64,000 bases of DNA from an uncultured Gammaproteobacteria bacterium (GTDB lineage Bacteria > Patescibacteriota > Microgenomatia > 2-02-FULL-39-11): contig CAYGXQ010000005.1 of NCBI GenBank assembly GCA_964354025.1, positions 3,366 to 67,365 on the forward strand. The letters run 5' to 3'. Below the pieces are notes generated by a model that had not been told where the DNA came from, ran no database searches, and saw only the letters and a list, made by a program, of their open reading frames with translations. Shown here piece by piece: positions 12,973 through 57,615 of the stretch (position 1 is the first letter of the stretch; each line of letters begins with the position of its first letter). The position numbers and the translations under genes were made by a program.

Positions 12973-13224
12973 CTATTTTGCGTAATGGTTGTTGATATCA
13001 ACAATTTCCGCTTCACCATCATCTGTCAGAATAAAAATCGCCCTGTATTTCCTGTCTATCCGGAAAGAATAGATCTTCAATTCTTTTGGCTCGAGAATTT
13101 CCGTGTGTAATGAGGGATGTTTCGGATTGACGGTGAAAAAAGCTATCTGTCTCTCCAGTTTCCGTTCCAGTCTATGTTTTTTGGCGTAATTTAAAAGATC
13201 AGCTCGGAGCGGCTTAACCGGCAT
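12973..13224 (-). CDS. RelE/ParE-family type II toxin
   Basis: 83 aa; RelE/ParE-like pattern; 11 nt overlap with the upstream RHH gene. Confidence 0.65.
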   Translation of the reverse strand: MPVKPLRADLLNYAKKHRLERKLERQIAFFTVNPKHPSLHTEILEPKELKIYSFRIDRKYRAIFILTDDGEAEIVDINNHYAK

Positions 13225-13477
13225 AGGCAGACGACTTTGATAATCCTTTTGTAACGCTGTTGATAAACTTGCTGTTGTATTTACCTGTTTTGGCCATTTT
13301 CTGCCTTACTTCCTCAAGAGGCCGCGGAGTAAAAACTTCCAATTCCAACTCTCCGGAAAAATATTTCCGCAGGAGAGCGCGGATAAATTCAGAACGGGTG
13401 GCATAACCCTGTCTGGAAGTTTCTGTCTCGACTAAACTGGCAACCTGTTCCGGTAAAGAAATCGTAAATGTAGTCAT
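13214..13477 (-). CDS. Ribbon-helix-helix (CopG/ParD-like) antitoxin
   Basis: 87 aa; the N-terminal ..ISLPEQVASLVETE..RSEFIRALLRKY pattern is typical of RHH. Confidence 0.6.
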   Translation of the reverse strand: MTTFTISLPEQVASLVETETSRQGYATRSEFIRALLRKYFSGELELEVFTPRPLEEVRQKMAKTGKYNSKFINSVTKGLSKSSAYAG

Positions 13478-13530
13478 ATAAGAAATTTTAACAAATTTTC
13501 TTATTTATTGTCAAGATAGATTAAAAATAT

Positions 13531-15012
13531 CTATAACACACCCAAAACCTTGGTCAAAGCTTGGGTTTCGAATTGGTTGAAGCTCTCGATATCACCTACT
13601 GCTTGCTGATTCAAGCAGACGAAAATCGAATAAGAACCATCTGGTTTTATAAAGCCTCCCATATCGTGGTGATTCATGCCAACTTTAAATTCACCTTCAC
13701 CGATTATATGAAACGATGAAATGCTACTTGGAACTGGGTATTGCGTCTTAAAATATGCCAATCTTGTTTTATTATCTGTTTGTTCCGCTAAAGCCTGTAT
13801 GATAAAATCTCTGTCTTCATCTTGAAGTAATCGTCTATTAATAATATTCCCAAGTATTTTGCCTAAATCTCCAGCCGTAGTCATAAAAAGTTGATGCGAT
13901 ACACTATAGTCAGTCTTCGTCAGCTCTAGTTCTGTCTGTAATCTTTTTGCAATGATTTTACAGGATGCATCCCAATTTCTTGTGCCTGTCAATTGATAGA
14001 CCAATCCTTCATATACATATTCATCGTGATTCCTCAATAGTCTAAATATCGCCTCCCGAAAGTTTGGGTAAGTATGTCCCATAAAAACCACCGGATTTGT
14101 TAGATTGTATTTTGCCGGATTTTGACGGATATCCCGCAAGGCCAACATTGCTATAGGCAGTGTAATCAAACTCCAGGCTTCAAAGGGGACTTCCGAATTC
14201 ACGGCAATCACTTCACCTTTTTCATTTTGGGCAAAAAAGGCGGACTGCCCGGGCATTTCTTTTGCCAAACCGGCAATCTCCTCCTGCACTTCGGCGATCA
14301 ATACCGTCCTGTCTTTCACCGGTCTGGTCGGCTTTTCCAAAACATGTTCTTCCCTTTCCCGGTAAATGCCTCCTCCGCCATAACCCTGTCCGGGCGGGTT
14401 GACTGTTTCTATGACCGGTGGAGCTTGTATAGCTGAAGGTTTTTCCGGTATAAATTTGGAAAGAATCCATCCCAAACCGGCTGCACCGGCCGCACCTGCC
14501 AATCCGATCACTAATTTCCTTCTCGTTTGACAAAAACGTATCCGGTTATCAACCAGATAACCGAAATTGGCAATTTTCCTTGCGGCTGTCCGGTCAAGTT
14601 GATCAATGCTGATAGCCTGCGGGTCTCCCCATGCCTGACCGTTATATTTTCTCACCGCAAAAGATACCTCATCGCCTTCTATATTCAAGCAATAATATTT
14701 ATCCGGACTGGTTCTGGAAAAATAACCTACTTCGCTCAAAGCCTCACCTTGCAATCTCACTAAAAAACTGTCTCCCTCATCTAACTCCAAAACCGCCTTA
14801 TCTTTCTTAAAAGACACATCTCTGCCCAAAGCAAAAAGAAGAGTATCTTCTTGAGGTTTTTCCGCCACCACCGGCGTTCCCCTGAACAGCTCAAATTCCG
14901 TCAAGGCTTTAGCCAGCGGCCGGCTATGGTCTATCAACCACGAAGTATTTATCCTTTCTTCGCTTTGTGCCGGATTAATGGATAAAGCAGCTATCTCGCC
15001 AGTCATAATCAT
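13531..15012 (-). CDS. Membrane-anchored protein whose C-terminal domain resembles a degenerate class A beta-lactamase or transpeptidase fold
   Basis: Central TM (LVIGLAGAAGAAGLGWIL) and a GYGGGG tract. The C-terminal region aligns by eye with class A landmarks: FEAWSLIT for FxxxSxxK (Lys replaced by Thr), TRN for SDN, KVG for KTG, then a DMGGFIKPDGSYSIFVCL-like strand. Confidence 0.5.
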   Translation of the reverse strand: MIMTGEIAALSINPAQSEERINTSWLIDHSRPLAKALTEFELFRGTPVVAEKPQEDTLLFALGRDVSFKKDKAVLELDEGDSFLVRLQGEALSEVGYFSRTSPDKYYCLNIEGDEVSFAVRKYNGQAWGDPQAISIDQLDRTAARKIANFGYLVDNRIRFCQTRRKLVIGLAGAAGAAGLGWILSKFIPEKPSAIQAPPVIETVNPPGQGYGGGGIYREREEHVLEKPTRPVKDRTVLIAEVQEEIAGLAKEMPGQSAFFAQNEKGEVIAVNSEVPFEAWSLITLPIAMLALRDIRQNPAKYNLTNPVVFMGHTYPNFREAIFRLLRNHDEYVYEGLVYQLTGTRNWDASCKIIAKRLQTELELTKTDYSVSHQLFMTTAGDLGKILGNIINRRLLQDEDRDFIIQALAEQTDNKTRLAYFKTQYPVPSSISSFHIIGEGEFKVGMNHHDMGGFIKPDGSYSIFVCLNQQAVGDIESFNQFETQALTKVLGVL

Positions 15013-28361: not shown

Positions 28362-29726
28362 TTATCCCCACAGCCACCAGGGGATAAGATAAACCGGTAA
28401 ACCGTCTGCCTTGATAAATTGCAAATCTCCATTGTATACGACCACTCCTGCTTTTATTCCTTTTTGTGTTTTCGCGTAGAACCTTAAATTATTGATTTTT
28501 TCTTTCTCAACTCTTTCAGACATCGTCATCTCAACAGGAATTCTTTCGTTTTCACCCCAGCGGATGATTAAATCAATTTCCCGTCCGGCATAGTTGCGGA
28601 AATAATGGACATGAGGCTCAAAAATTTCATTTTTAGCGAAAGCCAAAAAACTGTTTAGGATGATTGTCTCAAAAATTCCGCCGCTTGAACGTGAGTCTAA
28701 AACATTCAGAAGTGTTTCCCGGCCTGCCAGGAAATTGGTTATTCCTGTATCAAATAAATAGCACTTCGGGCTTTTGACTATTTGGGAGTAAGGATCAATA
28801 TCAGGGGTCAACGTCTGCAGTACAAAAGTATTTTCCAGGATCTGCCGGTAATTTTTGACTGTTTTCACGTTAATCTGCGTTTGCCGGGAATAGTTCTCAT
28901 AATTTAATATCCCTCCGGCATTCAGGCTGAAAATCTGCAGAGTCTTTTGGAAATTTGATAATTCATGGACCAGACCCGCCTGGCGGATATCTTTTTCCAA
29001 ATAGGTGGTAACCGCGCTTTTTAGGAGCTCAAATTTGCTGTTTTTATCGTCCTTCTGCCAGATGCCGGGTAGAGCGCCATAAACTAAAAGTTCGTCGCGG
29101 ATAAGTTGGATTTCTCTTTTATACTTAAAAAGCAAGGCGTTTTTCTCCCGCAAAAAATCCTCATTTAAATTATCGAGTTTCCCGGGGAAAAGCGAAGGTA
29201 ATGTCAGGTTTAATTTACTTGACAATATTTCTCCGATTGAAAGCGGTTGGAGATAGACATATTGCGCCCGCCCTGCCATTGATTCGGCGGTTTTTTTCTG
29301 GATTTCCAAAGACGCGGAACCGGAAAGAATCACTTTAATCTTTTCCCCAATCGTATCATGCCAGATCTTTACTAAGTCAAAAACATCAGGTGCTTTTTGC
29401 GCTTCATCAATCACGACTAAAATTTCGCTTTCCAGACGTTCAAAAGTAGTACCCAGTTGGGACTCTATCTGTTTTTGCAGGAAATAGAAATCACTTTTAA
29501 CTTGGTTTTGCAAAAGGATATCATCGAAAAGAAAATAAAATGTCTTGAGTTTGCTCTTTTTGGCAAAGTTTTTTACCAGCGTAGTCTTGCCTGTCTGTCT
29601 GGCTCCTAAAACTGCTACAATGTAGTTTTGTGACAAATAGTGCTCGACTATTTTCTCAGCGGTTCTTCCGAAATATTGTTTAATTTCCGCCATAATAATT
29701 ACGTATTTTAAACAAAATTCAGTCAA
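28362..29726 (-). CDS. AAA+ ATPase of the type with a C-terminal DUF4143-like region
   Basis: Walker A VLGARQTGKTTL; Walker B-like LVVIDEAQ; the true start is probably the internal MAEIKQY. Confidence 0.75.
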   Translation of the reverse strand: MTEFCLKYVIIMAEIKQYFGRTAEKIVEHYLSQNYIVAVLGARQTGKTTLVKNFAKKSKLKTFYFLFDDILLQNQVKSDFYFLQKQIESQLGTTFERLESEILVVIDEAQKAPDVFDLVKIWHDTIGEKIKVILSGSASLEIQKKTAESMAGRAQYVYLQPLSIGEILSSKLNLTLPSLFPGKLDNLNEDFLREKNALLFKYKREIQLIRDELLVYGALPGIWQKDDKNSKFELLKSAVTTYLEKDIRQAGLVHELSNFQKTLQIFSLNAGGILNYENYSRQTQINVKTVKNYRQILENTFVLQTLTPDIDPYSQIVKSPKCYLFDTGITNFLAGRETLLNVLDSRSSGGIFETIILNSFLAFAKNEIFEPHVHYFRNYAGREIDLIIRWGENERIPVEMTMSERVEKEKINNLRFYAKTQKGIKAGVVVYNGDLQFIKADGLPVYLIPWWLWG

Positions 29727-32210: not shown

Positions 32211-32243
32211 ACAACCCCTCCCCCTCTCCAGCGGGGAAGATTA
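32211..32243. repeat. Hairpin repeat family CCCCTCYCC..TTTCCGGCGGGGRA, copy a, at the 3' end of a minus-strand gene
   Basis: Four related copies: 32211-32243, 33201-33237, 33779-33809 and 34124-34150. Confidence 0.6.
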
Positions 32244-32918
32244 TTCTTTTGGCTTAATCCGAAGAAGTAGTTTGCGGGAAAGATTTTCATAGAATTTCAC
32301 AAAGTCAGTTTTATTTAACGGTATTTTTAATTCAGGAATAATGTTCATCTGTCTTGTATCTGCCATGCAATTGACAAAATGAAATTCAGATAAACCTGTA
32401 TCTTTTTGCCTGGACAGTTCAAACATCTTGTCAAAAGATAAATCAGTTTTTTTAAAAATCATATATAAATCTATATAATCTTTCGGTTCCAGTCTGCCGA
32501 AAACAGCCAGTATCTTATTGGAGGCAATATTAATAAGCGAATCCACTCTTACTCCTTCAATAGTGACAATCTCTCCAAAATGCCTCGGTTGTTCATGTAC
32601 GAAATCGATTCTTTGAATCCAGCGGTTATTTTTCTCCTGAAGGTAAACTTCATTATATGTTTTTGTCTGAACTTTTATGGAAACGAGAGAATTAGTCTTA
32701 TCGGCAATCTCTTTTAATACATCTGACAAAACTTCCGTGTTATATTCATCAAGAGAAAAAAAGTCAAAATCTTGACTTTTCCTGTGACCTAAATAAAAAG
32801 CCGCGAGGGCGGTTCCCCCTGTCAAGAAAAACTGCCGGCTAATCGGATAAGAAAAGAAAAGTTTAAGTATTTCTACCTGATGCGGAAGTAATACCGGATT
32901 ATTTTTAAAATTAAACAT
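32241..32918 (-). CDS. Nucleotidyltransferase of the AbiEii/DUF1814-like (GGTAL) type
   Basis: FFLTGGTALAAFYLGHRKSQDFDFFS motif; 8 nt overlap with the upstream small WDYD gene. Confidence 0.65.
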   Translation of the reverse strand: MFNFKNNPVLLPHQVEILKLFFSYPISRQFFLTGGTALAAFYLGHRKSQDFDFFSLDEYNTEVLSDVLKEIADKTNSLVSIKVQTKTYNEVYLQEKNNRWIQRIDFVHEQPRHFGEIVTIEGVRVDSLINIASNKILAVFGRLEPKDYIDLYMIFKKTDLSFDKMFELSRQKDTGLSEFHFVNCMADTRQMNIIPELKIPLNKTDFVKFYENLSRKLLLRIKPKE

Positions 32919-33159
32919 GGTATCCCCATACGCTTAACGCTTGCTCCCATGTGTTTTTTAATTGCGTATCCATACGAAGTTTGCTAAAGTTTGTGACAAT
33001 ATCTTCAACGGTGACGTATTTCCAGACATCATCGTACCTGGCGTGCGTTAATATTCTTCCCATCAGCCAGATCTTCTCCGTCTCATTTTTCCCGTGAAGG
33101 ATAGACCGAACCTGATCTTCGGACAGATCATAATCCCAAAGAAAATAAGGTCTTTTCAT
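32911..33159 (-). CDS. Small 'WDYD' protein, putative partner or antitoxin of the downstream NTase
   Basis: Homologous to the N-terminal part of ORF 44859-45170 (xWDYDxxE...), which also precedes a GGTAL NTase. Confidence 0.45.
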   Translation of the reverse strand: MKRPYFLWDYDLSEDQVRSILHGKNETEKIWLMGRILTHARYDDVWKYVTVEDIVTNFSKLRMDTQLKNTWEQALSVWGYHV

Positions 33160-33200: not shown

Positions 33201-33237
33201 AATCCCCCTCCCTCTTTCCGGCGGGGGGAAAAAATTA
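33201..33237. repeat. Hairpin repeat family, copy b
   Basis: aatccccctccctctttccggcggggggaaaaaatta. Confidence 0.6.
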
Positions 33238-33422
33238 TTTCAATTTTTTGGAGATGAAATTAACGATTTCTTTGGCGATTTCATAAGCTTCTTCCGCTTC
33301 ATCTCTTGTATATTTATCCAATTCTGAAATATCAGGATATCTTGTCTGGATATTTTATATTTAACTCAGTCCACTTAAGATCATCTTCACTTTTATCAAG
33401 CCAGATTTGCCACTCTTTATTA

Positions 33423-33761
33423 TTATTTCCCTTCATAGATCACTTCTCCTTTGCTTAATATTTCCCTGAAAAAGAAACTCTTTTTCAATCTCTCATCCAG
33501 CTCTTTTTGAGTCAGTACAAAAATATCATAAGGATAATCTAAAGAGAGCGCCAGTCTAGCATCGCAAAAACGGTCAGATAATTTTTGGTAAGTATTTTTT
33601 ATGATTAAAAGATCAACATCGCTTTTTCCATCAATAAATCTGCCGTTTGATAATGATCCAAAGAGAATAATCTTTTGGGGCTTAAGAGGTATAAGATCTG
33701 AAACAATTTGCTGCTTTATCTGATTAATCTTAGTCATTTTCCATATTATAGCATAGAACAA
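33423..33761 (-). CDS. Minimal nucleotidyltransferase (MNT/Pol-beta superfamily), possible solo TA component
   Basis: ILFGSLSNGRFIDGKSDVDLLII matches the GSx(9-13)DxD motif. Confidence 0.65.
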   Translation of the reverse strand: MFYAIIWKMTKINQIKQQIVSDLIPLKPQKIILFGSLSNGRFIDGKSDVDLLIIKNTYQKLSDRFCDARLALSLDYPYDIFVLTQKELDERLKKSFFFREILSKGEVIYEGK

Positions 33762-33814: not shown

Positions 33815-34063
33815 TCAGTTTGAGGGAATTTCCAGCACTTTTTCTATCTTGCAGAGGCGGGTTTCGTGATCTTCAAGAGTATCGGAGTGTTCGGAGAGCT
33901 TACCAGTAGAAACTTCCTGTTCCTCACGAATGGCTTTTAATTCACCCATTACCTTACCCATACTTTCATAGAACTCATCTTTAGTGGGAAGATGTTTTAT
34001 CTCTTCCTTGACAATATTTCTGGTTAATTTTTCTATTTCATCGAGATTTTTTTGCGTAAGCAT
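33815..34063 (-). CDS. 82 aa coiled-coil protein, paralog A
   Basis: Paralog of 35590-35838: shared LPTK(D/E)EF...REEQ...LSEHSDTL(E/D)DHETRL.K(I/V)EK.L.I.SSN C-terminal region. About 50 bp of 5' leader is also shared. Confidence 0.5.
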   Translation of the reverse strand: MLTQKNLDEIEKLTRNIVKEEIKHLPTKDEFYESMGKVMGELKAIREEQEVSTGKLSEHSDTLEDHETRLCKIEKVLEIPSN

Positions 34064-34216: not shown

Positions 34217-34780
34217 ATGACATTTCTTGAACTGCGAAAGCGGATAAAAGCCAACATCTTCACCTACCTGGACGTCGTGAAGCTATTCCCGGAAGATAAT
34301 CCGGAGCTGGTCAAAACCCAGCTTAACCGCTTCAGCACCAAAAAACTGATCATCGGCATCAAAAGAGGGCTTTACTGTTTTGAACCTGAAACGGTAGACG
34401 AATTTGAATTGGCAAGCCGGCTTTATCAGCCTTCTTATATCAGTCTTGAAACGGCTCTGAACTATTACGGAATTATCCCAGACGTACCACAGGCTATCAC
34501 TTCGATCACCCTGACCACAACCAAGAATCTCACTAATGCCTTTGGCAATTTTTATTACACGAAGATCAAACCTGTCCTCTATTTTGGCTTTTCCAAACTG
34601 AAATCAACCGACAGCGAAGGATATTTTAATCTTGCCAAAAAAGAAAAAGCCCTGCTGGACTACTTTTACATCCGCAAGATAAAAAGATTGGATAGCTTGA
34701 GATTAAATCTGAAAGAAATTAATCTGGCCCAATACCGAAGATACAGAACCATTTTCCCAAAATGGTTGCCGCAATTATGA
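34217..34780 (+). CDS. AbiEi-family antitoxin/transcriptional regulator
   Basis: SYISLETALNYYGII-type motif; 19 nt overlap with the following AbiEii-like gene. Confidence 0.65.
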   Translation: MTFLELRKRIKANIFTYLDVVKLFPEDNPELVKTQLNRFSTKKLIIGIKRGLYCFEPETVDEFELASRLYQPSYISLETALNYYGIIPDVPQAITSITLTTTKNLTNAFGNFYYTKIKPVLYFGFSKLKSTDSEGYFNLAKKEKALLDYFYIRKIKRLDSLRLNLKEINLAQYRRYRTIFPKWLPQL

Positions 34781-35574
34781 ATTACCTTATTGACTCTTTT
34801 AACCAAATTCTGGAATTTGCCGGTCGTTACAGCCTACCTCCCACTAAAAAGCGGGCTATATTGCGCGAATACCTCCAATGCAAAATACTCGAGCAAATCT
34901 ATCAGGAAAAAGAATCTCTGAATATTCTTTTTATCGGAGGGACATCTCTTCGGCTACTTTATGATCTCGACAGGTTTTCCGAAGATTTGGATTTTGACGT
35001 GCAAAATATTTCCTCCGGTTGCGTTGATCTACTGATTAAACGTATCTGTAAAAATCTGGTTAAAGAAAATATCGAAACTTCTCTCTATAAAAACGTGACT
35101 GACAAAAAAGTCTATTATGAACTTCGCTTCAAACATGTCCTTTTTCCGCTTAATATCAGCAAAAATATAGAAGAAAATTTAAGCATCAAGCTGGATTTTG
35201 AAAAATATTGGTTGGCGGAAAAAAAAGAGATAAAGCTATTAAACCGATACGGCTACCTGGTCAATTGCCTGACAATTCCCCTTGAACAGCTGCTGGTACA
35301 GAAACTTCACGCCTATCTTAGCCGGACGCAGACGCAACCAAGAGATCTTTACGATATTACCTGGCTTGTTTCTCATGGAGCAACGCTTGATAAAACTTTT
35401 ATGAAAAAGAATAAAATGGATAAAGATGCCGTCAATTTAGCTAAACAGAAATTTGAGAAAGAAAAAGGAATGCTTGCGACACTGAAACAAAAATTAAGAC
35501 CGTTTCTGATAGATGAAAATAATATCCGGAAACTGGATCTGTTTAACCAAGTTTTAGCTACCTTGCAAGGTTGA
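34762..35574 (+). CDS. AbiEii/AbiGii-family nucleotidyltransferase toxin
   Basis: ILFIGGTSLRLLYDLDRFSEDLDFD motif; its stop codon lies in the TGA spacer of the ACCTTGCAAGGT-TGA-ACCTTTAAAGGG palindromes. Confidence 0.75.
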   Translation: MVAAIMNYLIDSFNQILEFAGRYSLPPTKKRAILREYLQCKILEQIYQEKESLNILFIGGTSLRLLYDLDRFSEDLDFDVQNISSGCVDLLIKRICKNLVKENIETSLYKNVTDKKVYYELRFKHVLFPLNISKNIEENLSIKLDFEKYWLAEKKEIKLLNRYGYLVNCLTIPLEQLLVQKLHAYLSRTQTQPRDLYDITWLVSHGATLDKTFMKKNKMDKDAVNLAKQKFEKEKGMLATLKQKLRPFLIDENNIRKLDLFNQVLATLQG

Positions 35575-35589: not shown

Positions 35590-35838
35590 TCAGTTTGAAG
35601 AAATTGCCAACGTCTTCTCTACTTTTCCGAGGCGGGTTTCGTGGTCATCAAGAGTATCTGAGTGCTCGGAGAGTTGTCCTACTAAGACCTTCTGCTCCTC
35701 ACGGAAGTCCTTAACTTCTTTCATGAGTTCATCCATTTTAGCGAAGAATTCTTCTTTGGTAGGAAGATGGCTAAATGCTTCTCTTATTCTTTCCCATTGC
35801 TCACGAAAAACATCTTTCAGATCATCTTTGGTCAGCAT
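35590..35838 (-). CDS. 82 aa coiled-coil protein, paralog B
   Basis: See paralog A. Confidence 0.5.
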   Translation of the reverse strand: MLTKDDLKDVFREQWERIREAFSHLPTKEEFFAKMDELMKEVKDFREEQKVLVGQLSEHSDTLDDHETRLGKVEKTLAISSN

Positions 35839-39253: not shown

Positions 39254-40633
39254 CTATAGGTTCATAGAAAATAAAAATAGCTCAACGGGTATTAAACAAA
39301 GGTTTTTCCTCTGCAGATAATCATTTTTCGTAACAACAGTAAGCTTTTCTTTAGGAAATTTATCCATAAACCAGGAAAACTCGGCAGGATTAACGCGGTT
39401 TTGGAATTTTACCTCAAAATAAGACAGTTTCTGTTTATCCCTACCGATAAAATCAATCTCTCTGTCTTTTAACCGGCCGTAATAAAGATTTGGGAAGATA
39501 CGCCATAAATGCATCGCTGTCAGATTTTCAACTAAATGTGAAAGAAAAACCGGTTCAGTCAGTTTTTTCCTGGTAAACGAATACTGTTCATCGCGCATGT
39601 TTTCAATCTTCGCTAAAAAGCTCATGAGGATAAACGTGTCATTAAAATAAAACTTGTGGTTTTTCTTATAATCAGCCTTCCTTTGCGCCAGTTCAAAATA
39701 ATCCAGGTTGAAAACGGAAAACATTTGAGTCAGAAGATCAACATATTCAACCGCGCTCACATAAGAGGACAGACCGGCATTTTTGGCTAATTCGTAATAT
39801 GAAACCGGTGTCGTCAGCGAGCTGATCATTTTGGCAAAAATCAAATCGGCGGTTTTTTCCTGTTTGCCGAACTTATGCAAGTCGCCTATCACCCAGGAAG
39901 TGTAAATATCGGCAATCTCCGAGCTGATAAATCCTTTCTCGTAAAATTCGTTGATGACTGCCGGGAAGCCGCCGGTAAGAAGATAATCTTTAAAAAGGGC
40001 TTTTAATTTCGGCAGATGCAGCTTTTCCCGGCCCTTTTGCCAATCCCTGCTTTCAGGATAAACCATCTTCGCGAAATCCTTAAACAATAAAGGCAGAAAA
40101 ACAATGTCTTTTTCTTTGATATTGCCCCGCCTGCCGGGAAGCCTTTCTGAGGAAAACTTCAAATCAACGGTTGATGAGCCGGTCAGGAAGAAAAGCGTTT
40201 TTTTGCCCCACTGGCTTTCCGCGAAATCCTTGATTGTTCTTTGCCATTCTTTTACAAACGAGATTTCATCCAGAAAAACATAGTGAAAATCAGCCGTTTC
40301 TCCAAATTCCTGAAAATACGCATTGATGATATCAGAAAGCTCAAGAAAGGAAGAAACCGTGTTCAGGGAATAATAAAAAATGCCTTTGGGATTGACTTTA
40401 TCCTCCAGAAGAAGTTTTTTTATTATCTGCTTTGAGAGAGTGGTTTTACCTATTTGTCTAGGTCCGCGCAAAGTCATGACACCCGGCTCGTTTTCCGGAA
40501 AAGCGGAAAGAAGAGGGTGGATGAACTGAAATTTGCGGCCGGCGACTTCTTTAAGCTTATCGTCAGCCAAAATCAGCTCTTTCTCTCCCCACCAGGGATT
40601 TTTCTGGTATAAGGATAAAATATCAGGCGACAT
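39254..40633 (-). CDS. AAA+ ATPase with a DUF4143-like C-terminal region (second paralog)
   Basis: Walker A LRGPRQIGKTTL; Walker B VFLDEISF. Confidence 0.75.
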   Translation of the reverse strand: MSPDILSLYQKNPWWGEKELILADDKLKEVAGRKFQFIHPLLSAFPENEPGVMTLRGPRQIGKTTLSKQIIKKLLLEDKVNPKGIFYYSLNTVSSFLELSDIINAYFQEFGETADFHYVFLDEISFVKEWQRTIKDFAESQWGKKTLFFLTGSSTVDLKFSSERLPGRRGNIKEKDIVFLPLLFKDFAKMVYPESRDWQKGREKLHLPKLKALFKDYLLTGGFPAVINEFYEKGFISSEIADIYTSWVIGDLHKFGKQEKTADLIFAKMISSLTTPVSYYELAKNAGLSSYVSAVEYVDLLTQMFSVFNLDYFELAQRKADYKKNHKFYFNDTFILMSFLAKIENMRDEQYSFTRKKLTEPVFLSHLVENLTAMHLWRIFPNLYYGRLKDREIDFIGRDKQKLSYFEVKFQNRVNPAEFSWFMDKFPKEKLTVVTKNDYLQRKNLCLIPVELFLFSMNL

Positions 40634-40774: not shown

Positions 40775-41257
40775 TTAATCATTTAACCATGTACAATTTG
40801 GTGAGGTAGCACCGTACTTTTTTCCACATTCATTTCTAAAAAATTGATAAATTCCATCTTTTTCTTCCCGCTTAAGGGGCTTTCCCTCTATGCCTTCCAC
40901 CTTAGATATAACTGATTTACAATTTGCAACTGTATTATTCCCATTCAAGCAATTTATTCCTGCCTCTTTGAAGTTCTTTATTATCTCTGCTGTTTGTCCA
41001 AGCTGATTACCTGCGTCTTGTATTGCACCACCCGCTGTTTGACCTGCCTGTACGATTTGTTGTCCTGCTTGTTGTACCGGAGTGCTCGGAGAAGAAGTAG
41101 AAGATCCTCCCCCACAGGCTATAAGCCCACTATCGGTTTTCCCGCTTCTCACTGGATGATCACCAACATCACATGATTTTGCAAAATATTTTATTGGTTC
41201 TTCTGCTGGTGGTGCTGGAGCACAACTGCTTAGTATACTTGCTGCCAATCCGGCCAC
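40775..41257 (-). CDS. Putative secreted protein or lipoprotein (GTG start) overlapping the 3' end of toxin gene 1; candidate immunity protein, or the result of a frameshift
   Basis: ..AASILSSC lipobox-like sequence followed by a Cys-containing Gly/Gln-rich region; 89 nt out-of-frame overlap with 41169-41900. Confidence 0.4.
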   Translation of the reverse strand: MAGLAASILSSCAPAPPAEEPIKYFAKSCDVGDHPVRSGKTDSGLIACGGGSSTSSPSTPVQQAGQQIVQAGQTAGGAIQDAGNQLGQTAEIIKNFKEAGINCLNGNNTVANCKSVISKVEGIEGKPLKREEKDGIYQFFRNECGKKYGATSPNCTWLND

Positions 41258-41900
41258 TACTAATGTTGTACCAAAATTTAAAACTGCTTAATGTTGCACT
41301 GCCTAGGATCACCGCGGCGCTCACCAAGGCATCCTTTCCAGTAATTGCTGCTCCTTTGCTTCCTGTTCTCTCAAAAAATTTAGGATAAGATTCCTGCGCT
41401 TCTTTACCTACCCATATACCCTGTCCGGTATTATTTCTTTTTCTGCAGTTTTCCTCTTCTCCATAAGCACATTCCCAATTTCCTGAAGGATCATTTCTTA
41501 TAATGGGATTTCCTTCGACGTAGGCAAACCGGTTTGGCGAGTCCGCCAGCTGGCGGACGGAGTCCGCGGAAACGAAACGGGAAAGAACAGGATCGTAGTA
41601 GCGGGCGTTATAGTAAGAAAGAGTTGTTTTATCATCTTTAATTTGACCAGTGTAGGCACGTTCAGTGGCGGGATTTGAGGAATTTGGGGAACCGTAGGGA
41701 GAATATTTGGATTGGGAGATATTGTTTCCTTTATCATCCGAGACAGCAATCACTGATCCCAGATTGTCGGTATGAATATAGTAAGTAGATTCGGTGTAGG
41801 AAGCGTGAACAGGATGAGCAATGATAAATGATAAATTATAAATTACAAATGAAATTACAAATGACAGAATGCAAAATTTAGAATTTAGTAATTTAAACAT
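41169..41900 (-). CDS. Sec-signal + RHS-core + short variable tip protein (polymorphic toxin cassette 1)
   Basis: N-terminal hydrophobic signal ending AHPVHA/SY; RHS core motifs YYIHTDNLGSVIAVSDDKGNN...YNARYYDPVLSRFVSADSV...NPIIRNDPSGN. The last ~30 codons look like read-through in a wrong frame. Confidence 0.7.
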   Translation of the reverse strand: MFKLLNSKFCILSFVISFVIYNLSFIIAHPVHASYTESTYYIHTDNLGSVIAVSDDKGNNISQSKYSPYGSPNSSNPATERAYTGQIKDDKTTLSYYNARYYDPVLSRFVSADSVRQLADSPNRFAYVEGNPIIRNDPSGNWECAYGEEENCRKRNNTGQGIWVGKEAQESYPKFFERTGSKGAAITGKDALVSAAVILGSATLSSFKFWYNISSGRIGSKYTKQLCSSTTSRRTNKIFCKIM

Positions 41901-41947: not shown

Positions 41948-42397
41948 TCACGAAGACAGAAGGGGTGTCAATTTTTCGATCAATTCCTTCGGGGAAACGA
42001 TGTGGAAATCCCTGATCTTTTTCCGCAGGATCAATAAATGTTTTTTATCCAAAGTCACCAAATAATCTGCTTCATTTTCACTGCAGGAAGCCAAAACATG
42101 GGAATCTCCCCTGTCGATAACTATTTTGTCGAATAAGGAAATAATTGATTGCTCGGGCGCTTCGGCTATTTTGGAAAATATCTTCGTGACTTCTGTTTTT
42201 GCCTTTTGGGGTGTCTGTTTTATCTTCGGCGCCCGGCGGCATACTTCATCAAGAATAATCTCGCTGATCAAACCGCTGATCTTCCCCTTCTTCACCCACG
42301 ACAGCAGTTTTCCCGACCCGCCTGAAGGAGAATGAAGTCCCGCCAGAATCACCGAAGCATTGAAAAAAACTACCGGAGCATGACTGTGTCGTCTCAT
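41948..42397 (-). CDS. PIN-domain toxin (VapC-like)
   Basis: N-terminal VVFFNASVILAGL; C-terminal DSHVLASCSENEADYLVTLDKKHL pattern; start abuts the stop of the AbrB-type gene. Confidence 0.65.
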   Translation of the reverse strand: MRRHSHAPVVFFNASVILAGLHSPSGGSGKLLSWVKKGKISGLISEIILDEVCRRAPKIKQTPQKAKTEVTKIFSKIAEAPEQSIISLFDKIVIDRGDSHVLASCSENEADYLVTLDKKHLLILRKKIRDFHIVSPKELIEKLTPLLSS

Positions 42398-42666
42398 TAT
42401 AATAAATGTTTTTTCTTTAAGATTTTCGAGTCTTCCCGGTCAAGCGCCAGAAACCCGTTTATTTCTTTACCGGAATAACTTCTTACCGGATAAGAAAGAG
42501 TCCTGACCGGCTCCAATATCAGTCTTCCCCGGTCTTTCCTCACCCTCACCAATCCTCTTTCCTCCAAACCAATCTCATCCCGCAGTTTTTTAGGGATGGT
42601 CAGAAGTCCCTTAGGCTGGACTTTGATGATTTCTTCAAAAGGAATAGTCTGCATAATTTTCTGCAA
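42397..42666 (-). CDS. AbrB/SpoVT/MazE-type antitoxin
   Basis: QPKGLLTIPKKLRDEIGL swapped-hairpin motif. Confidence 0.65.
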   Translation of the reverse strand: MQKIMQTIPFEEIIKVQPKGLLTIPKKLRDEIGLEERGLVRVRKDRGRLILEPVRTLSYPVRSYSGKEINGFLALDREDSKILKKKHLL

Positions 42667-42802: not shown

Positions 42803-43090
42803 TCATACTCCTGCCAGTTGAGGATGTTTATCGCCAATTTTCTCCATAACCCACATCCGGATAAGTTGTGTCGGGCCTAAACCTTTCTTTTTTGCCTGAT
42901 TTCTGACGTCATTCAGAGTATCAGCGTCCAGACGGATGTTGAGTGTTTCTGACAGGTTTCTCGCAAACTTAACTTTTGCGGATTTACCATTATCCCACGC
43001 TTTATCAAAGTGTTTTTCCCAATAATCAGCTTCTTTTGTGCGGTTCTTAAATACCGATATATCAGGCATAGATGGTTTGACTTTATTCAT
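42803..43090 (-). CDS. brnA: BrnA-like antitoxin
   Basis: C-terminal NIRLDADTLNDVRNQAKKKGLGPTQLIRMWVMEKI RHH-like tail; 4 nt overlap with the upstream BrnT. Confidence 0.65.
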   Translation of the reverse strand: MNKVKPSMPDISVFKNRTKEADYWEKHFDKAWDNGKSAKVKFARNLSETLNIRLDADTLNDVRNQAKKKGLGPTQLIRMWVMEKIGDKHPQLAGV

Positions 43091-43353
43091 GATTTAACCT
43101 CCTTTATAAATGCTGTAATAACATAATATGTTCCGTTACTGTAAGGTCGCAGATTCCGATCTTCAGGTGATAATACAATAGCGAGTTGCTTACCTCTCTT
43201 TGTCTTACCGGTGATAAGAATCCTTTTCCGGTAACTTTCCCTGACTTTATGTTTTCCGTGACAAACTTCTTCAATATCTTCCTGTGTAATTCCATGATGA
43301 TTCATGTGCTTTCTATTCCAATCATCCCAAATCAGTCTCTTTACCACGATCAT
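43087..43353 (-). CDS. brnT: BrnT-like (DUF497) ribonuclease toxin
   Basis: IWDDWNRKHMNHHGITQEDIEEV...YYVITAF pattern. Confidence 0.65.
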   Translation of the reverse strand: MIVVKRLIWDDWNRKHMNHHGITQEDIEEVCHGKHKVRESYRKRILITGKTKRGKQLAIVLSPEDRNLRPYSNGTYYVITAFIKEVKS

Positions 43354-43538: not shown

Positions 43539-44789
43539 TTATGGAGTCACCAATGTATTTATCCATAACTTGGTTAAATTGGGATAATGAAGATTATATT
43601 TTTCTGCTGTACCAATATTCGCGACCCATTTACGCCAAACATCATTTCTCCCACTATAACTAAAAATCCATGATTGTCCTTGATGTATCTCTGGCATAAA
43701 CCAACCTGTAAGTTGGCAGGCCGCACTTTCCTTTATGTCTTGTTGGTAATCAGAAATGGAATTATCAATATAATAAGAACCATAATCTTCTTGCGGTCCA
43801 CTCTTTTGTTTATTCGATTTGGGAGGAATCGCCAACTTACCATAAATATTTTCCCAATATACAGAATCTTTTGTTGCTGCTTCTTGGTAGCTTTCTTCAT
43901 TAAAATTCTTCAACATAAGATAATGCGTTGCTTCATGAACAAACTCGTGTTCCTGCTGCCATTGAGGTAGTGTAAATGTTCGTGGATCCAAAAAAACTGA
44001 TGAAGGGAAATATTCACCTTCTCTTTCGAAACTATTATTTAAATAATTTTCGCCTATATCTGTTCGATTAATATACAATCCCTTCAGGATATTTGGATTA
44101 TGGGTTATATATATTATTCTTTCGATGCTTTTTTCAATCGATTTAATTTCATTTGTACGCCATGCCCACATACTTCGATAGTATGGATTATTTTTATAAC
44201 CTGGCCATCTATCCGGATTATTTATATCTTCTTCTTTTATTTCCTGGTCTACATTATAAGCAAAGGAAACACCATATTTTTTAGAAATTTTTTGTGCTAA
44301 TTGGAATGATTCATTTGTATCCTTTACATAAGATTCAAATTGTAAATCTATACCTTCATCTGCCCTTTGTCCTCCCGGATCATTCATCATGATCGGATTA
44401 CCACCCACATAGGAGTATCTGTTCAGCTGGTCCGCCAGCTGGCGGACGCTATCAGCCGAAATAAATCTGGATAAAACTGGGTCATAGTACCTCGCGTTAT
44501 AATATGCCAGTTGGGTGTTCTTATCCGCAATTTGACCTGTATATTCTCTTTCAGTTGTAGGTTGTAAGTTGTAGGTTGTAAGTTCATTTCCATATGGAGA
44601 ATACTTGGTTTGTGAGACATTGTTTCCTTTATCATCTGAGACAGCTATCACTGACCCCAGATGATCCTGATGGATATAGTAGGTGGTTTCGGTGTAAGCG
44701 GCGTAGACCGGAGAAATGAATAATCCAATAAACAAATAACCCAATAATCCAATGAATATAACAATGAAACAATGTAGCAATTTATCCAT
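43539..44789 (-). CDS. Sec-signal + RHS-core + HExxH metallopeptidase-like tip (polymorphic toxin cassette 2)
   Basis: Signal peptide; core YYIHQDHLGSVIAVSDDKGNN..YNARYYDPVLSRFISADSVRQLAD..NPIMMNDPGGQ; tip contains HEFVHEATH. Confidence 0.75.
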   Translation of the reverse strand: MDKLLHCFIVIFIGLLGYLFIGLFISPVYAAYTETTYYIHQDHLGSVIAVSDDKGNNVSQTKYSPYGNELTTYNLQPTTEREYTGQIADKNTQLAYYNARYYDPVLSRFISADSVRQLADQLNRYSYVGGNPIMMNDPGGQRADEGIDLQFESYVKDTNESFQLAQKISKKYGVSFAYNVDQEIKEEDINNPDRWPGYKNNPYYRSMWAWRTNEIKSIEKSIERIIYITHNPNILKGLYINRTDIGENYLNNSFEREGEYFPSSVFLDPRTFTLPQWQQEHEFVHEATHYLMLKNFNEESYQEAATKDSVYWENIYGKLAIPPKSNKQKSGPQEDYGSYYIDNSISDYQQDIKESAACQLTGWFMPEIHQGQSWIFSYSGRNDVWRKWVANIGTAEKYNLHYPNLTKLWINTLVTP

Positions 44790-44858: not shown

Positions 44859-45170
44859 ATGCCATTGTGGCATGAAAACGGAAGAACTGTCAAACCGGGT
44901 TTGTCTATACTTCCCTTCTCTGCTACAATAATAATCACTATGGCTCATATCTGGGACTACGATATCAACGAACTTAAAAAGACAGAGCAAGGCAGGCTCC
45001 TTATCCTTGAACGGATGATCAATTTCGGTCCCGACAAGAGAGAAAAGATCAGTCTTTCACAAGTTAAAAAAAATTGGGATAAATTGCATCTGTTCCCGAG
45101 TGCCAAAAAGCTTCTGGAACTTCTGATATGGGGAAAATATCTGTCCTCACCGGAAAACAAAAGATCGTAA
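44859..45170 (+). CDS. Small 'WDYD' protein (probable true start at MAHIWDYD), partner of the decayed NTase gene
   Basis: Homologous to 32911-33159. Confidence 0.4.
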   Translation: MPLWHENGRTVKPGLSILPFSATIIITMAHIWDYDINELKKTEQGRLLILERMINFGPDKREKISLSQVKKNWDKLHLFPSAKKLLELLIWGKYLSSPENKRS

Positions 45171-45478
45171 TAGATGAGATAAAGAAGGAAAAAAACCTGG
45201 CTTCCCGATTCTATCTCACGGGCGGGACCGCTCTTTCGGCATTTCATCTTCAGCACCGCTATTCTGATGATCTGGATCTTTTCAGTGATGATGCCTTTGA
45301 TAAGGAAAAAATCGTTAATTTCATCAAGAGACTGGCCACTCAAAGATTTTTTCCGGAAGCAGGCGGAACTGATAGGGAAAAAGGTGACAAGATAAACTTC
45401 ATAAGGTGTCAAGCCGGTACACCTGGAAGGTGTACGAGTGGACATCCGGCAGGCCGCAAAGAATCTAGAGGAAAATAA
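45128..45478 (+). pseudogene. Truncated or frameshifted GGTAL nucleotidyltransferase (AbiEii-like) gene
   Basis: N-terminal FYLTGGTALSAFHLQHRYSDDLDLFSDD matches 32241-32918; after about 80 aa the sequence diverges into low-complexity residues and stops early. Confidence 0.5.
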
Positions 45479-45521
45479 GATCGTATATAATAAGGGAAAT
45501 AAACTACTTCATTTGGAAATT

Positions 45522-55107: not shown

Positions 55108-55179
55108 TATATGCTATTTCTTATCCGGCCGGACAGATGATAACATATATTGACAATCTCGGGGATTAAATATTGTTAA

Positions 55180-55404
55180 TCACGTCATTAATTTATATTC
55201 TTCCGGGTCTAAATTAATATCTCTTAATATTTTTCTCAAAAGTCCTCTTCCTATTTCTTCTCCTTTATGCATAGGTACTACTGTTTCTCTTCCGTCTGGA
55301 TGTTGAAGAATCAGATGACTGCCTTTTTGTCTTACAGGAATAAATCCGAGTTTATGCAGTATTTTGAGCAATTTAATTGCCTTAACTGGGGATAATTTAG
55401 GCAT
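55180..55404 (-). CDS. hicA: HicA mRNA-interferase toxin
   Basis: KGSHLILQHPDGRETVVPMHKGEEIGRGLLRKIL pattern. Confidence 0.75.
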   Translation of the reverse strand: MPKLSPVKAIKLLKILHKLGFIPVRQKGSHLILQHPDGRETVVPMHKGEEIGRGLLRKILRDINLDPEEYKLMT

Positions 55405-55654
55405 ATTGGATTTTTATATCCTCTATCCCGAAGAAGTTGATCATTGATTGCGGAGACTTGATTTTTTCCTTCTTTAATTCCTTGTGAACTTCCAGATACA
55501 AATCTATCGCCTCTTTTATCCTATCCCGTACTTTTTCCAGCGTCTTGGCTTGGGTATGACAACCGGGTAACTCAGGCACTGAAGCAATATAATATCCATC
55601 TTCATCCTGTTCTAAAAGTATTTTAAATTGTAAATAATTATTGGATTTTGACAT
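55397..55654 (-). CDS. hicB: HicB-like antitoxin
   Basis: EQDEDGYYIASVPELPGCHTQAKTLEKV pattern; 8 nt overlap with hicA. Confidence 0.7.
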   Translation of the reverse strand: MSKSNNYLQFKILLEQDEDGYYIASVPELPGCHTQAKTLEKVRDRIKEAIDLYLEVHKELKKEKIKSPQSMINFFGIEDIKIQYA

Positions 55655-55708
55655 ATAGGGAATTATAGCATATTAATTCTAATAAATGGCAACTCTGAGG
55701 ATCGAACC

Positions 55709-55796
55709 ATTCCATGTCTCCTCCTTCGGCATGGCCATCCTCGCCTCCATCGTCATCGCTATCCTCTCCAGCATCGTGAATGTGATTTTCCAGTAA
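55709..55796 (+). repeat. Second, diverged copy of the holin-gene 3' end (about 85 percent identity to 52856-52943)
   Basis: ttccatgtctcctccttcggcatggccatcctcgcctccatcgtcatcgctatcctctccagcatcgtgaatgtgattttccagtaa. Confidence 0.7.
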
Positions 55797-55997
55797 TGGA
55801 TTTCCTGTGTGGATTGTATATATAGGCCTATATCTTTTTTGATTTTTATGGTATAATCCTCATCACTATAAGGTATTCTCTCAAATCCGTTCTTCAAGCG
55901 ATCTGATCTTGGTGGAATATCTTATTTTTTTGCTCTTTAAAAAGACAGCAAGCCGTACCGCAGGAAACCGGAATAGAAGGTAGTAATACTTTATGCC

Positions 55998-56078
55998 GTC
56001 ATTGCGAGCAAAACGAAGTGAAGCGAAGCAATCTCTTATAAATTTAGATTGCCGCGTCGCTACGCTCCTCGCAATGAC
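55998..56078. mobile_element. MITE-like element, second full copy (TIR GTCATTGCGA / TCGCAATGAC)
   Basis: TIRs at 55998-56007 and 56069-56078; internal gaagcaatc..agattgcc as in the 37851-37944 copy. Confidence 0.6.
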
Positions 56079-56262
56079 AATGAAGAAGGTTTTTATATAA
56101 GTTCTAAACTTACTATCTCCTACTTCGGTTTTCTGCGTGTAATATTACCCCTTAAAGGAGAAAGGGTGTGGTCACCAAATTTAAACCACAACGCAACGAT
56201 ACTAAAAAGTCGCAATCACCGAATGCGGCTATACAAAAATCCGAAAAGAGAAAGAGGAAAAA

Positions 56263-56793
56263 ATGAGAACGCGACAAATCGTGAGTCTGCTTGTCTTGGT
56301 TTTGGTCGTCGTTGCCAGCCTTGTCACGTCGGAATCTACGTGTGCCCAAAGTCTGGCGTGCGATGCCGACGTGAATAACGACGGCGTTGTGAATATCTTT
56401 GACCTAGCCATCGTCGCCGACAATTTCGGCACCACGACTAGCGACGGGCGCTTTGACGGGGACGTCAACGGCGATGGCATTGTGAACATCTACGATCTCA
56501 CCGTTGTGGCAGGCCAATTTGGCCATATTTGCCAAGGGCTCGAGTTGTTCGACGTCAAAATTGACGAGCCTTTTAACGTCCTGATCGACGGAAATTGGAA
56601 GTACGTCTGGATTAATTCCGGTCACCAGGGGCGCACTAATGTCCAGGGAACCAACTTGGTGACTGAAGAGATTGGGCCGGATCAGTATCGGGTCACCAAT
56701 TTCGAACGACAATGGTTCGATATCTTGTACCTGGGAGGTGGAAAATTTCGTATAGTCACCGACAATTGGCTGATACACGTCCCTCCCCAATAG
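56263..56793 (+). CDS. Secreted dockerin-domain protein
   Basis: Signal peptide; two dockerin Ca-binding repeats DVNNDGVVNIFDLAIVADNFG and DVNGDGIVNIYDLTVVAGQFG. Confidence 0.7.
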   Translation: MRTRQIVSLLVLVLVVVASLVTSESTCAQSLACDADVNNDGVVNIFDLAIVADNFGTTTSDGRFDGDVNGDGIVNIYDLTVVAGQFGHICQGLELFDVKIDEPFNVLIDGNWKYVWINSGHQGRTNVQGTNLVTEEIGPDQYRVTNFERQWFDILYLGGGKFRIVTDNWLIHVPPQ

Positions 56794-56805
56794 GTGTGGT
56801 CCCCC

Positions 56806-56847
56806 GGGAATCCCGCACCGCACTTATGTGCGGGATCCCTTTTGGGG
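56806..56847 (+). terminator. Rho-independent terminator-like hairpin after the dockerin gene
   Basis: gggaatcccgcac...gtgcgggatccc stem followed by ttttgggg. Confidence 0.55.
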
Positions 56848-57028
56848 AATGCAGCGTTACACCCACACTTGGTGTGTAAAGCTGCCCTTTTGGGGAAGAA
56901 TTCGGCTGAAAAAGTCGATAAAAATCCCGTTTCGCGGGACCAAATTTATCCTTTTTCGCCTGTCGGCTTGCTGTCTTTCCCATTATTCTCTCTACAATTA
57001 TCAACCCCGAAGATTGTCCACTCCCGCC

Positions 57029-57331
57029 TCAAAGTTCAATTCTGATTTTACCCAAGGCAAAACGGTGCAAGAGGGTGGAAATTAATGTCTGGTAAGGCAG
57101 CATATTCTCCGCGGCTTTTGCCCTAATAGCAACCAAATCACGGCTATTTAACCTAATACTGACCCTTTTGTCTTTTTTGGCTGCTGATTGAAAGATTTTT
57201 GTGATCCTTGCTTTTTCTGCCTCCATATTTTTTACCTGTTTATATTCTCCGCGTTCTATGGCGTCATTTATTTCCTTCTCTTCCGGATCAAGTTTAAGAT
57301 TGGCAAACGGATCGAATTTCTTATAATTCAT
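57029..57331 (-). CDS. brnA: BrnA-like antitoxin (pair 3)
   Basis: C-terminal VSIRLNSRDLVAIRAKAAENMLPYQTLISTLLHRFA. Confidence 0.65.
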   Translation of the reverse strand: MNYKKFDPFANLKLDPEEKEINDAIERGEYKQVKNMEAEKARITKIFQSAAKKDKRVSIRLNSRDLVAIRAKAAENMLPYQTLISTLLHRFALGKIRIEL

Positions 57332-57615
57332 ACTGTCTTCTCCTTCCTTTTAATAAATAACTTTGTATATTTTCTGCTGGGAAATGCCGTCTTTAAAAAG
57401 ATCTTTTCCTCATCTTCCGTAAACGGTACGGCATAAGCGTAGTTATCTATCTTTATAATAAACAATTTCTGCCCCGGATAACGTTTCTGATTTGGATTAT
57501 CAACGATGGCTAACATGTTTCCCCTATTTATTGCCTTCTTAACCGCTTCAAAAGAAACCCCGCGTTCCTTTTTCAACAATAGATTTTTTTCTTTACTGTA
57601 TTCAATTCTCTTCAC
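57328..57615 (-). CDS. brnT: BrnT-like toxin (pair 3)
   Basis: IEYSKEKNLLLKKERGVSFEAV...YAYAVPFTEDEEKIFLKTAFPSR; 4 nt overlap. Confidence 0.65.
   Translation of the reverse strand: MKRIEYSKEKNLLLKKERGVSFEAVKKAINRGNMLAIVDNPNQKRYPGQKLFIIKIDNYAYAVPFTEDEEKIFLKTAFPSRKYTKLFIKRKEKTV

Follow-up and report, generated by a model that had tools for sequence, protein, structure and literature searches.

Nucleotidyltransferases (NTases) of the DUF1814/AbiEii/MenT group form a widespread toxin family; how structurally unrelated antitoxins control it is being actively investigated, and the members that have been characterised are toxins (PMC3985639, PMC7450476). In AbiE of Lactococcus and Streptococcus agalactiae, a type IV/VII toxin-antitoxin (TA) and abortive-infection system, the AbiEii toxin is encoded in a bicistronic operon downstream of the AbiEi/COG5340 antitoxin, which consists of an N-terminal winged helix-turn-helix (wHTH) and a C-terminal neutralising domain. 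In MenAT1 of Mycobacterium tuberculosis (MenA1-MenT1, Rv0078B-Rv0078A), a short antitoxin without a DNA-binding domain, shaped as a two-helix V with a disordered tail, lies upstream of a short DUF1814 NTase, and MenA1 is the precedent for a short, non-AbiEi antitoxin of DUF1814 toxins (PMC10435456). That toxins of this family have antitoxins of different kinds, the short MenA1 among them, is already established; diverse, unrelated antitoxins and antitoxin-induced auto-phosphorylation have both been described (PMC10435456, PMC11375011, bioRxiv 10.64898/2026.01.19.700257), and according to a current proposal very different antitoxins all act by making the toxin phosphorylate itself. Here we describe two families of small proteins, type A and type B, which carry a WDY motif and are encoded together with short AbiEii/DUF1814 NTases in a stretch of 64,000 nucleotides (nt) of contig CAYGXQ010000005.1, hereafter called the window. 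They are probably the cognate antitoxins of these NTases and would then add a new antitoxin family to a toxin family already known.

Two modules of a small protein and a short nucleotidyltransferase

The genes of the two modules are the following.
32911-33159, minus strand: type A "FLWDY" small protein, 82 amino acids (aa), predicted antitoxin; directly upstream of the NTase gene, whose start it overlaps by 8 nt
32241-32918, minus strand: type A short AbiEii/DUF1814 NTase, 225 aa, intact, predicted toxin; Pfam AbiEii E 3.9e-14, above the cut-off; PADLOC AbiEii E 5e-14
44940-45170, plus strand: type B "HIWDY...ILERMINxGP" small protein, 76 aa, intact, predicted antitoxin
45128-45478, plus strand: type B short AbiEii NTase, decayed; Pfam AbiEii E 6.1e-10, residues 23-85 only

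The proteins of the window were scanned with the profiles of Pfam, NCBIfam and PADLOC, using the curated cut-offs. The type A NTase and the type B remnant both belong to PF08843 (AbiEii/DUF1814), the Pfam family of the AbiE toxin, and the modules share with AbiE the catalytic motifs, the bicistronic operon and the upstream, overlapping partner gene. A canonical AbiE module lies in the same window, 1.3 kb from the type A pair. A terminator-like hairpin follows the stop codon of the type A NTase. The type A small protein matches no profile of Pfam, NCBIfam or PADLOC, the AbiEi models included, and source databases annotate it only as "hypothetical protein". A word-indexed search retrieved 25 close homologs, one of them from Candidatus Gottesmanbacteria, and an exhaustive profile search extended the relatives of type A to 433 representatives of 50%-identity clusters. 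The start of the type B protein is the Met of MAHIWDYD, in agreement with the public gene call P0242; its family comprises 741 homologs, all annotated as hypothetical.

The sequence-only reading of the window had taken the two pairs for two copies of one pair, one of them decayed. Both pairs are present, but they are not copies. The small proteins of type A and type B are only ~22% identical, form separate families and are linked only at the profile level, where hhalign aligned the type A profile with the type B protein of the window at 87% and the two family profiles with each other at 89% (E 2e-6 for the latter, 2e-6 to 4.5e-6 overall); this rules out the second pair as a decayed duplicate of the first. 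Moreover, decay in the second pair is confined to the NTase, whose N-terminal ~85 residues are intact and are followed by a frameshift and stops, with the homology running on in another frame (tblastn), whereas the small protein is intact. The decayed gene ends ~45 bp short of a gene with an RHS tip on the opposite strand. Type A and type B modules travel together: on the minus strand of L015 (3950-4854), L022 (3907-4808) and L051 (3882-4759) a type B and a type A module are arranged tail to tail.

Recurrence of the pairing

That the WDY protein is a conserved partner of these NTases, as claimed in the sequence-only reading, is borne out by well over a hundred other genomes in which the two genes are adjacent. 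For type A, one genome per species was scanned, which yielded 48 loci whose open reading frames (ORFs) were searched with the NTase profile; the locus records are titled Patescibacteria/Microgenomates and Chloroflexota/Anaerolineae, and many, from third-party assemblies, bear the unconfirmed title "uncultured Gammaproteobacteria". An NTase of 215-235 aa lies directly downstream, usually overlapping, in 39 of the 48 species-level loci. In 35 of them it is a full ORF (200 aa or longer, mostly 214-235 aa) that is on the same strand and starts within or just after the small gene, and in four it is cut by the end of the contig. Four further loci (L007, L008, L041, L054) contain decayed NTase fragments, two (L021, L053) an intact small gene alone, the NTase having been lost, and three (L024, L040, L050) are uninformative or decayed. 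Three independent look-ups of the neighbours of single type A proteins agree with the census, and an AbiEii gene is also found downstream of the 140-aa extended form P0194. For type B, 80 metagenome loci were examined and an NTase follows the small gene in 75 of the 77 informative ones, as a full protein of ~219 aa (63 loci), cut by the contig end (4) or as a fragment (8); three loci have no room downstream and two lack an NTase despite room. Three further look-ups of type B neighbours gave the same result. The pairwise identities of small proteins and NTases correlate (r = 0.69), a value reached by none of 2000 Mantel permutations, and the two genes are co-inherited as a unit.

These data bear on the assumption that the adjacency is incidental and the small ORF unrelated to the NTase or non-functional. 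Many loci stem from related Patescibacteria, such that shared ancestry could inflate the counts, and some distant homologs have no NTase neighbour. However, the pairing persists across very different flanks, in Patescibacteria as well as in Chloroflexota, and in two families with only ~22% identity; the two genes also occur fused (see below), and the small protein is conserved (mean identity 50%) and has a confidently predicted fold. An incidental adjacency is therefore very improbable and largely excluded. A tblastn search of plasmids with the small proteins of both types found nothing, and no relative was found on viral contigs, a result that is uninformative about a role in defence either way.

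The partner nucleotidyltransferases

Among the partner NTases (n = 24-36), T33-G-G-T-A-L, R46, S48, D50, D52, K135, K146-D147 and D150 are strictly conserved, and D105 and N134 almost strictly. All catalytic motifs of DUF1814 are found in them: hG[GS], [DE]x[DE], the third acidic residue, the catalytic Lys, and the Ser/Thr of the phospho-acceptor position two residues before the first Asp. Like MenT1, they have T/S-x-D, then K and, 15 residues on, D; the S-x-D...K...D pattern and its spacing match T39/D41/K137/D152 of MenT1 (PMC10435456), the equivalence of S48 resting on motif spacing and not on a structural alignment. With its catalytic motifs intact, the NTase is predicted to be active. In MenT1 and MenT3 the Ser/Thr at the position equivalent to S48 is the auto-phosphorylation site (PMC11375011), and auto-phosphorylation of the toxin has been reported for AbiEii as well (bioRxiv 10.64898/2026.01.19.700257).

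The closest relative of solved structure is JHP933 of Helicobacter pylori (PDB 4O8S/4OK0), which was found with the family profile at E 7e-11 (4O8S) and whose R-x-S-E-D-L-D-F and N-K motifs align with those of the partner NTases; its identity to the NTase of the window is only remote. The NTase profile did not detect MenT1 at E<=1, and the MenT and AbiEii structures are too distant from the partner NTases for detection by sequence. Compared with the canonical AbiEii of the window, the NTases associated with WDY proteins are 45-50 residues shorter.

Comparison of the small protein with AbiEi and MenA1

AlphaFold2, supplied with an alignment of 25 sequences, modelled the type A small protein as a compact five-helix domain with high confidence (predicted local distance difference test, pLDDT, 93.3; predicted template-modelling score, pTM, 0.80). 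Invariant in type A are F6, L7, W8, D9, Y10, L12, W31, R35, L37, L61 and W71. The model points to a fold of its own, as Foldseek retrieved no similar structure from the PDB (best E 1.8, template-modelling score at most 0.42) or from viral models, and the type A family profile retrieved nothing at E<=10 from all PDB chain sequences.

In contrast to AbiEi, the WDY partner, of 82 or 76 aa, is all-helical, lacks a wHTH and shows no detectable similarity to AbiEi/COG5340; the combination of an N-terminal wHTH and a C-terminal neutralising domain that marks this antitoxin family is absent. A truncated AbiEi is ruled out by the lack of a match to the AbiEi models of PADLOC and NCBIfam and to any PDB fold. 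MenAT1 is the closest functional analogue, with the same layout of a short antitoxin gene, devoid of a DNA-binding domain, upstream of the gene of a short DUF1814 NTase. Yet the PDB, which holds MenA1, contains nothing similar to the WDY protein in sequence or fold, and the V-shaped pair of helices with a disordered tail differs from the compact five-helix domain predicted here. Since no profile, no PDB sequence and no fold matches, the type A protein is neither a fragment of AbiEi nor a relative of MenA1.

The earlier distinction between the small WDYD partner and a canonical AbiEi thus stands. The additional suggestion that it represents a new type of antitoxin gains from the recurrence of the pairing and from the lack of AbiEi features; the antitoxin function itself we infer, and with MenA1 a short partner of this kind has a precedent. 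Short AbiEii NTases on Campylobacter plasmids (L073 1208-2145, L074 1122-2343) are preceded by small overlapping ORFs that are annotated as hypothetical and were ruled out as relatives of the WDY proteins (hhalign 0.2%). The AbiEii toxin family seems to have several further unnamed small partners.

Domain architectures of the relatives

In the free form, the relatives of the small protein comprise 80-105 aa. Relatives of ~143 aa have an N-terminal strand-helix-helix extension that looks like a ribbon-helix-helix (RHH); when it was compared with PDB profiles the best match was NikA, at a non-significant E of 0.96. Other relatives carry, with firm Pfam support, N-terminal DNA-binding domains of the HTH_3/XRE, CopG_antitoxin, RHH_1 and MarR/HTH_24 winged-helix families. 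In P0045, P0112 and P0076 the small domain is followed by the AbiEii NTase in a single chain; these are three fusions among 150 listed representatives, the split two-gene forms being far commoner. A distinct branch of 19 representatives has the motif "IWEYD", and in most of them the domain is located at the C-terminus of proteins of up to ~1300 aa. STAND-type NTPases of ~1200-1330 aa (P0137, P0140, P0144, P0148, P0150, P0162, P0167, P0170) end in such a WDY-related domain with the motif "IWEYD...RIWAIGRVLKYA"; in scans of this branch two members matched nSTAND_NTPase5 and one AAA_16.

According to one interpretation of these architectures, the pair is a split ancestral NTase with an N-terminal auto-inhibitory or sensor domain, a single-unit abortive-infection switch in which a phage factor would displace the small domain, as in CapRel and other fused toxin-antitoxins, and with no role for classical turnover of an antitoxin. 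The order of the domains in the fusions, from the N- to the C-terminus, is that of the genes; STAND NTPases, typical immune sensors, have a related domain too; and the island that holds the modules of the window also contains AbiE and other defence candidates. Two-gene forms, however, vastly outnumber the fusions, and no phage trigger is known, so that we consider such a switch improbable.

The only link of the small proteins to a catalogued family is a weak, sub-threshold similarity to DUF6922 (PF21956, a model of 52 positions), a family without an assigned function. Of 94 type A relatives 5 gave weak matches (best E 1.7e-5), as did 16 of 40 type B members; one close homolog bears a precomputed "faint" match, and among the relatives picked for individual scans P0105 alone matched, again weakly. 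The cut-off of the family is 27 bits, one individual score was 14.4 bits and none among the scores seen reached the cut-off; the two small proteins of the window did not match even at E<=10 and do not qualify as members. No paper found in the literature mentions DUF6922 or this combination of a small protein and an NTase. A wider concept would regard the WDY/DUF6922-like five-helix domain as a portable control module for AbiEii-type NTase toxins that occurs free, fused to RHH, XRE or wHTH domains, in cis on the NTase, which would give an auto-inhibited toxin in one chain, or at the C-terminus of STAND proteins, where it would tether or regulate a separate NTase effector. We hold this generalisation to be quite doubtful; if true, it would connect STAND-type immune sensors with DUF1814 toxins in a hitherto undescribed architecture.

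Proposed function and mechanism

The pairing recurs, the layout of the operon is conserved, the catalytic motifs are intact and relatives of the small protein are fused to other domains. The position of the small gene upstream of and overlapping with the NTase gene, the relatives with DNA-binding domains, the fusions and the one-sided decay of the NTase support a TA system, in which the WDY proteins of both types would be the antitoxins. The toxicity of the NTase, its neutralisation, the mode of binding and a tRNA target we infer from the described systems. Each module forms a two-gene operon with the small gene first, and since the end of the small gene overlaps the start codon of the toxin gene, translation of both is probably coupled. 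Judged by MenT and AbiEii, the NTase would attach nucleotides to the 3' ends of tRNA and so arrest translation, and the five-helix protein would bind to the NTase directly and keep it off. With MenA1, MenA3 and AbiEi as models, it might either cover the active site, as MenA1 does, or drive auto-phosphorylation of the invariant Ser48 in S-x-D-x-D, as has been reported for all three antitoxins.

Decay is asymmetric. An intact small gene stands beside a decayed or lost NTase gene in the window, in the six type A loci named above (L007, L008, L041, L054, L021, L053) and in eight type B loci, and a decayed small gene beside an intact NTase gene was seen in none of the examined loci; this asymmetry is biased, as the small protein was the query with which the loci were retrieved. 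Other points weigh, like this bias, against an antitoxin. Standalone small proteins cannot autoregulate transcription alone because they have no DNA-binding domain, a covalent fusion of a constitutive antitoxin and its toxin is unusual and no less compatible with a regulatory or sensor domain, and the natural fusion P0045, folded without an alignment, gave an unusable model (pLDDT 41.5). Occurrence at the C-terminus of STAND NTPases suggests a more general role in protein interactions, and no NTase gene adjoins the genes of the more distant homologs P0203 and P0198.

Some of these points would also suit a small protein that acts positively, as an accessory subunit of a two-subunit enzyme, in which it would recruit the substrate, confer specificity or assist folding. 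Natural single-chain fusions of the small domain with the NTase, the tight co-inheritance, the shortness of the partner NTases (215-235 aa versus 270 aa of the canonical AbiEii in the window) and the lack of a DNA-binding domain in the standalone proteins agree with such a role. But RHH, XRE and wHTH domains, as found in the relatives, typify antitoxins rather than enzyme subunits, decay or loss of the NTase with retention of the small gene is seen repeatedly, and the characterised members of the NTase family are toxins (PMC3985639, PMC7450476), which makes an accessory subunit unlikely. We thus retain the cognate antitoxin as the probable function of the small WDY proteins.

Other modules of the region

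The remaining TA, abortive-infection and ATPase genes between positions 12973 and 57615 are listed in the order of their coordinates.
12973-13224, minus strand: RelE/ParE/HigB-like toxin, 83 aa; Pfam HigB-like_toxin 1.2e-4 and ParE_toxin 1.8e-3, both sub-threshold; 11-nt overlap with the upstream RHH gene
13214-13477, minus strand: RHH (CopG-type) antitoxin, 87 aa; Pfam RHH_1 23.7 bits, above the cut-off of 20.5
28362-29726, minus strand: standalone AAA_14 + DUF4143 ATPase; Pfam DUF4143 1.6e-29, AAA_14 4.9e-27; PADLOC PDC-S01 3.4e-65
~33235-33418, minus strand: HEPN toxin pseudogene with an internal deletion and a frameshift, directly downstream of the following gene
33423-33761, minus strand: MNT-type minimal nucleotidyltransferase, orphan antitoxin; Pfam NTP_transf_2 8.7e-7, above the cut-off; Polbeta 2.3e-6
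34217-34780, plus strand: canonical AbiEi antitoxin, 187 aa; PADLOC AbiEi 7.4e-44
34762-35574, plus strand: canonical AbiEii toxin, 270 aa; Pfam AbiEii 5e-22, above the cut-off; PADLOC AbiEii 2.2e-40; 19-nt overlap with the AbiEi gene
39254-40633, minus strand: standalone AAA_14 + DUF4143 ATPase; Pfam AAA_14 4.2e-23, DUF4143 1.2e-17; PADLOC PDC-S01 1.3e-34
41948-42397, minus strand: PIN-domain toxin (VapC-like); Pfam PIN_3 3.7e-11, above the cut-off
42397-42666, minus strand: AbrB/MazE-fold antitoxin (VapB-like); Pfam MazE_antitoxin 3.1e-5, 24.3 bits, 0.4 bit short of the cut-off of 24.7; 1-nt overlap with the PIN gene
42803-43353, minus strand: BrnTA pair 1, BrnT-like toxin (43087-43353) and BrnA/CopG antitoxin (42803-43090), 4-nt overlap
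51922-52522, minus strand: BrnTA pair 2, BrnT-like toxin (52214-52522) and BrnA/CopG antitoxin (51922-52230)
55180-55404 and 55397-55654, minus strand: HicA toxin (HicA_toxin 1.3e-19) and HicB antitoxin (HicB_lk_antitox 1.4e-9), both above the cut-off; 8-nt overlap
57029-57615, minus strand: BrnTA pair 3, BrnT-like toxin (57328-57615) and BrnA/CopG antitoxin (57029-57331), 4-nt overlap

Every TA or abortive-infection element named in the sequence-only reading was recovered at its position by the ORF listing and the profile scans. Most of its family assignments agree with the hidden Markov model scans, but the BrnT and RelE toxins match only below the curated cut-offs. HicAB, VapBC (PIN/AbrB) and RelE/ParE-RHH fall within their families, with MazE/AbrB marginally short of its cut-off and the RelE/ParE-like toxin sub-threshold. 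In the BrnTA pairs, tested against BrnT_toxin (PF04365), two of the three antitoxins pass the CopG_antitoxin cut-off of 28 bits (36.1 bits in pair 1, 28.2 bits in pair 2) and none of the three toxins passes that of BrnT, with E values of 2e-4 to 2e-3 or a match to DUF4258 only. The toxin of pair 1 matches DUF4258 (8.5e-5) and BrnT_toxin (2.4e-3), both sub-threshold, that of pair 2 only DUF4258 (E 0.038), and in pair 3 BrnT_toxin (2.1e-4) and CopG_antitoxin (1.2e-5) are both just below the cut-offs. PDB sequence searches with the BrnTA proteins lent the assignment no support; the gene order with the toxin upstream and the overlaps of 4-17 nt are those expected for BrnT/BrnA. Pairs 2 and 3 are paralogs with 47% and 36% identity, the 47% being that of the toxins. 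In all TA pairs of the stretch the genes overlap by 1-19 nt in the expected order, consistent with operons, and because overlaps and gene order match expectation the calls below the cut-offs gain support. The two standalone DUF4143-type ATPases proposed earlier both exceed the Pfam cut-offs; PDC-S01, which both match, is a single-gene defence candidate of PADLOC.

The MNT gene predicted in the sequence-only reading exists, with the correction that a decayed HEPN toxin gene follows it. The remnant is split over two frames ("KEWQIWLDKSEDDLK..." and then "...RYPDISELDKYTRDEAEEAYEIAKEIVNFISKKLK") and retains the N-terminal "W..DK.EDDL" helix and the C-terminal "RYPD...YT.DEAEEA" motif, the middle with the catalytic Rx4-6H motif having been lost; phmmer related it to the HEPN protein TT1696 (1UFB) at E 0.009. 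As the adjoining HEPN gene is a decayed remnant, the MNT gene is an orphan antitoxin and not part of an intact HEPN-MNT pair. The canonical AbiEi matched NCBIfam TAA_AbiEi at 5.8e-12 (45.6 bits, below the cut-off of 150) and no Pfam family. The AbiEi/AbiEii module is flanked by the genes of two paralogous 82-aa coiled-coil proteins (33815-34063 and 35590-35838, both minus strand; 53% identical), each preceded by a similar promoter-like site, TTGACA-17-TAAGAT, and the former located just upstream of the MNT gene. The two proteins match no family and have no homologs in any of the fetched loci.

RHS-tip genes are interspersed among the modules of the PIN/AbrB, BrnTA and type B kinds. The three short genes at 41169-41900, 43539-44789 and 45522-46853 (all minus strand) encode proteins that are ~60% identical over the N-terminal 140-190 residues and unrelated at the C-termini, with a transmembrane or signal segment and the RHS core-tip motif YYNARYYDP..RF.SADS; they look like orphan RHS/YD polymorphic-toxin cassettes. 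A YD-repeat protein of 2274 aa is encoded at 1954-8778 (plus strand), and YD-shell and RHS-repeat genes also follow the type A pair in the Gottesmanbacteria locus L001/L002.

Ten two-gene TA modules were counted within the 44.6 kb from 12973 to 57615, of which four giant genes occupy ~15 kb; no TA modules were seen by eye in the remaining 19 kb of the window. M. tuberculosis, the genome of which is famously rich in TA modules, has roughly one per 50 kb, so that the local density is high. The sole tRNA gene of the window, a tRNA-Ser (TGA) at 57905-57988 (plus strand), lies at the border of the TA-rich stretch, 290 bp past BrnTA pair 3; a repeat of its 3' end, sought as an integration site of the island, was not found in the window, nor was an integrase gene seen there. 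Just beyond the tRNA gene, 58169-58762 (minus strand) encodes a protein of 197 aa that has a winged-helix region at its N-terminus (weak ArsR/IclR/MarR-type matches) and a C-terminal half that is uncharacterised. The region is best explained as a chromosomal TA island in a Patescibacteria (Microgenomates-like) genome, that is, in a tiny-celled bacterium of the candidate phyla radiation type.

Significance

The TA island itself is ordinary. What is new, on the best reading, is a family of small partners for the known AbiEii/DUF1814 toxin family. A third class of partner would provide a direct test of the proposal that antitoxins of DUF1814 toxins act through auto-phosphorylation of the toxin. 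The class is abundant and compact, resembles neither AbiEi nor MenA1, and the Ser of S-x-D-x-D is invariant in its toxins. If the small proteins are antitoxins, a name could be given to hundreds of small proteins of Patescibacteria and Chloroflexota that are now called "hypothetical", and the programs that search for defence and TA systems could recognise the modules as complete AbiE-like systems, of which PADLOC and Pfam at present detect only the toxin half.

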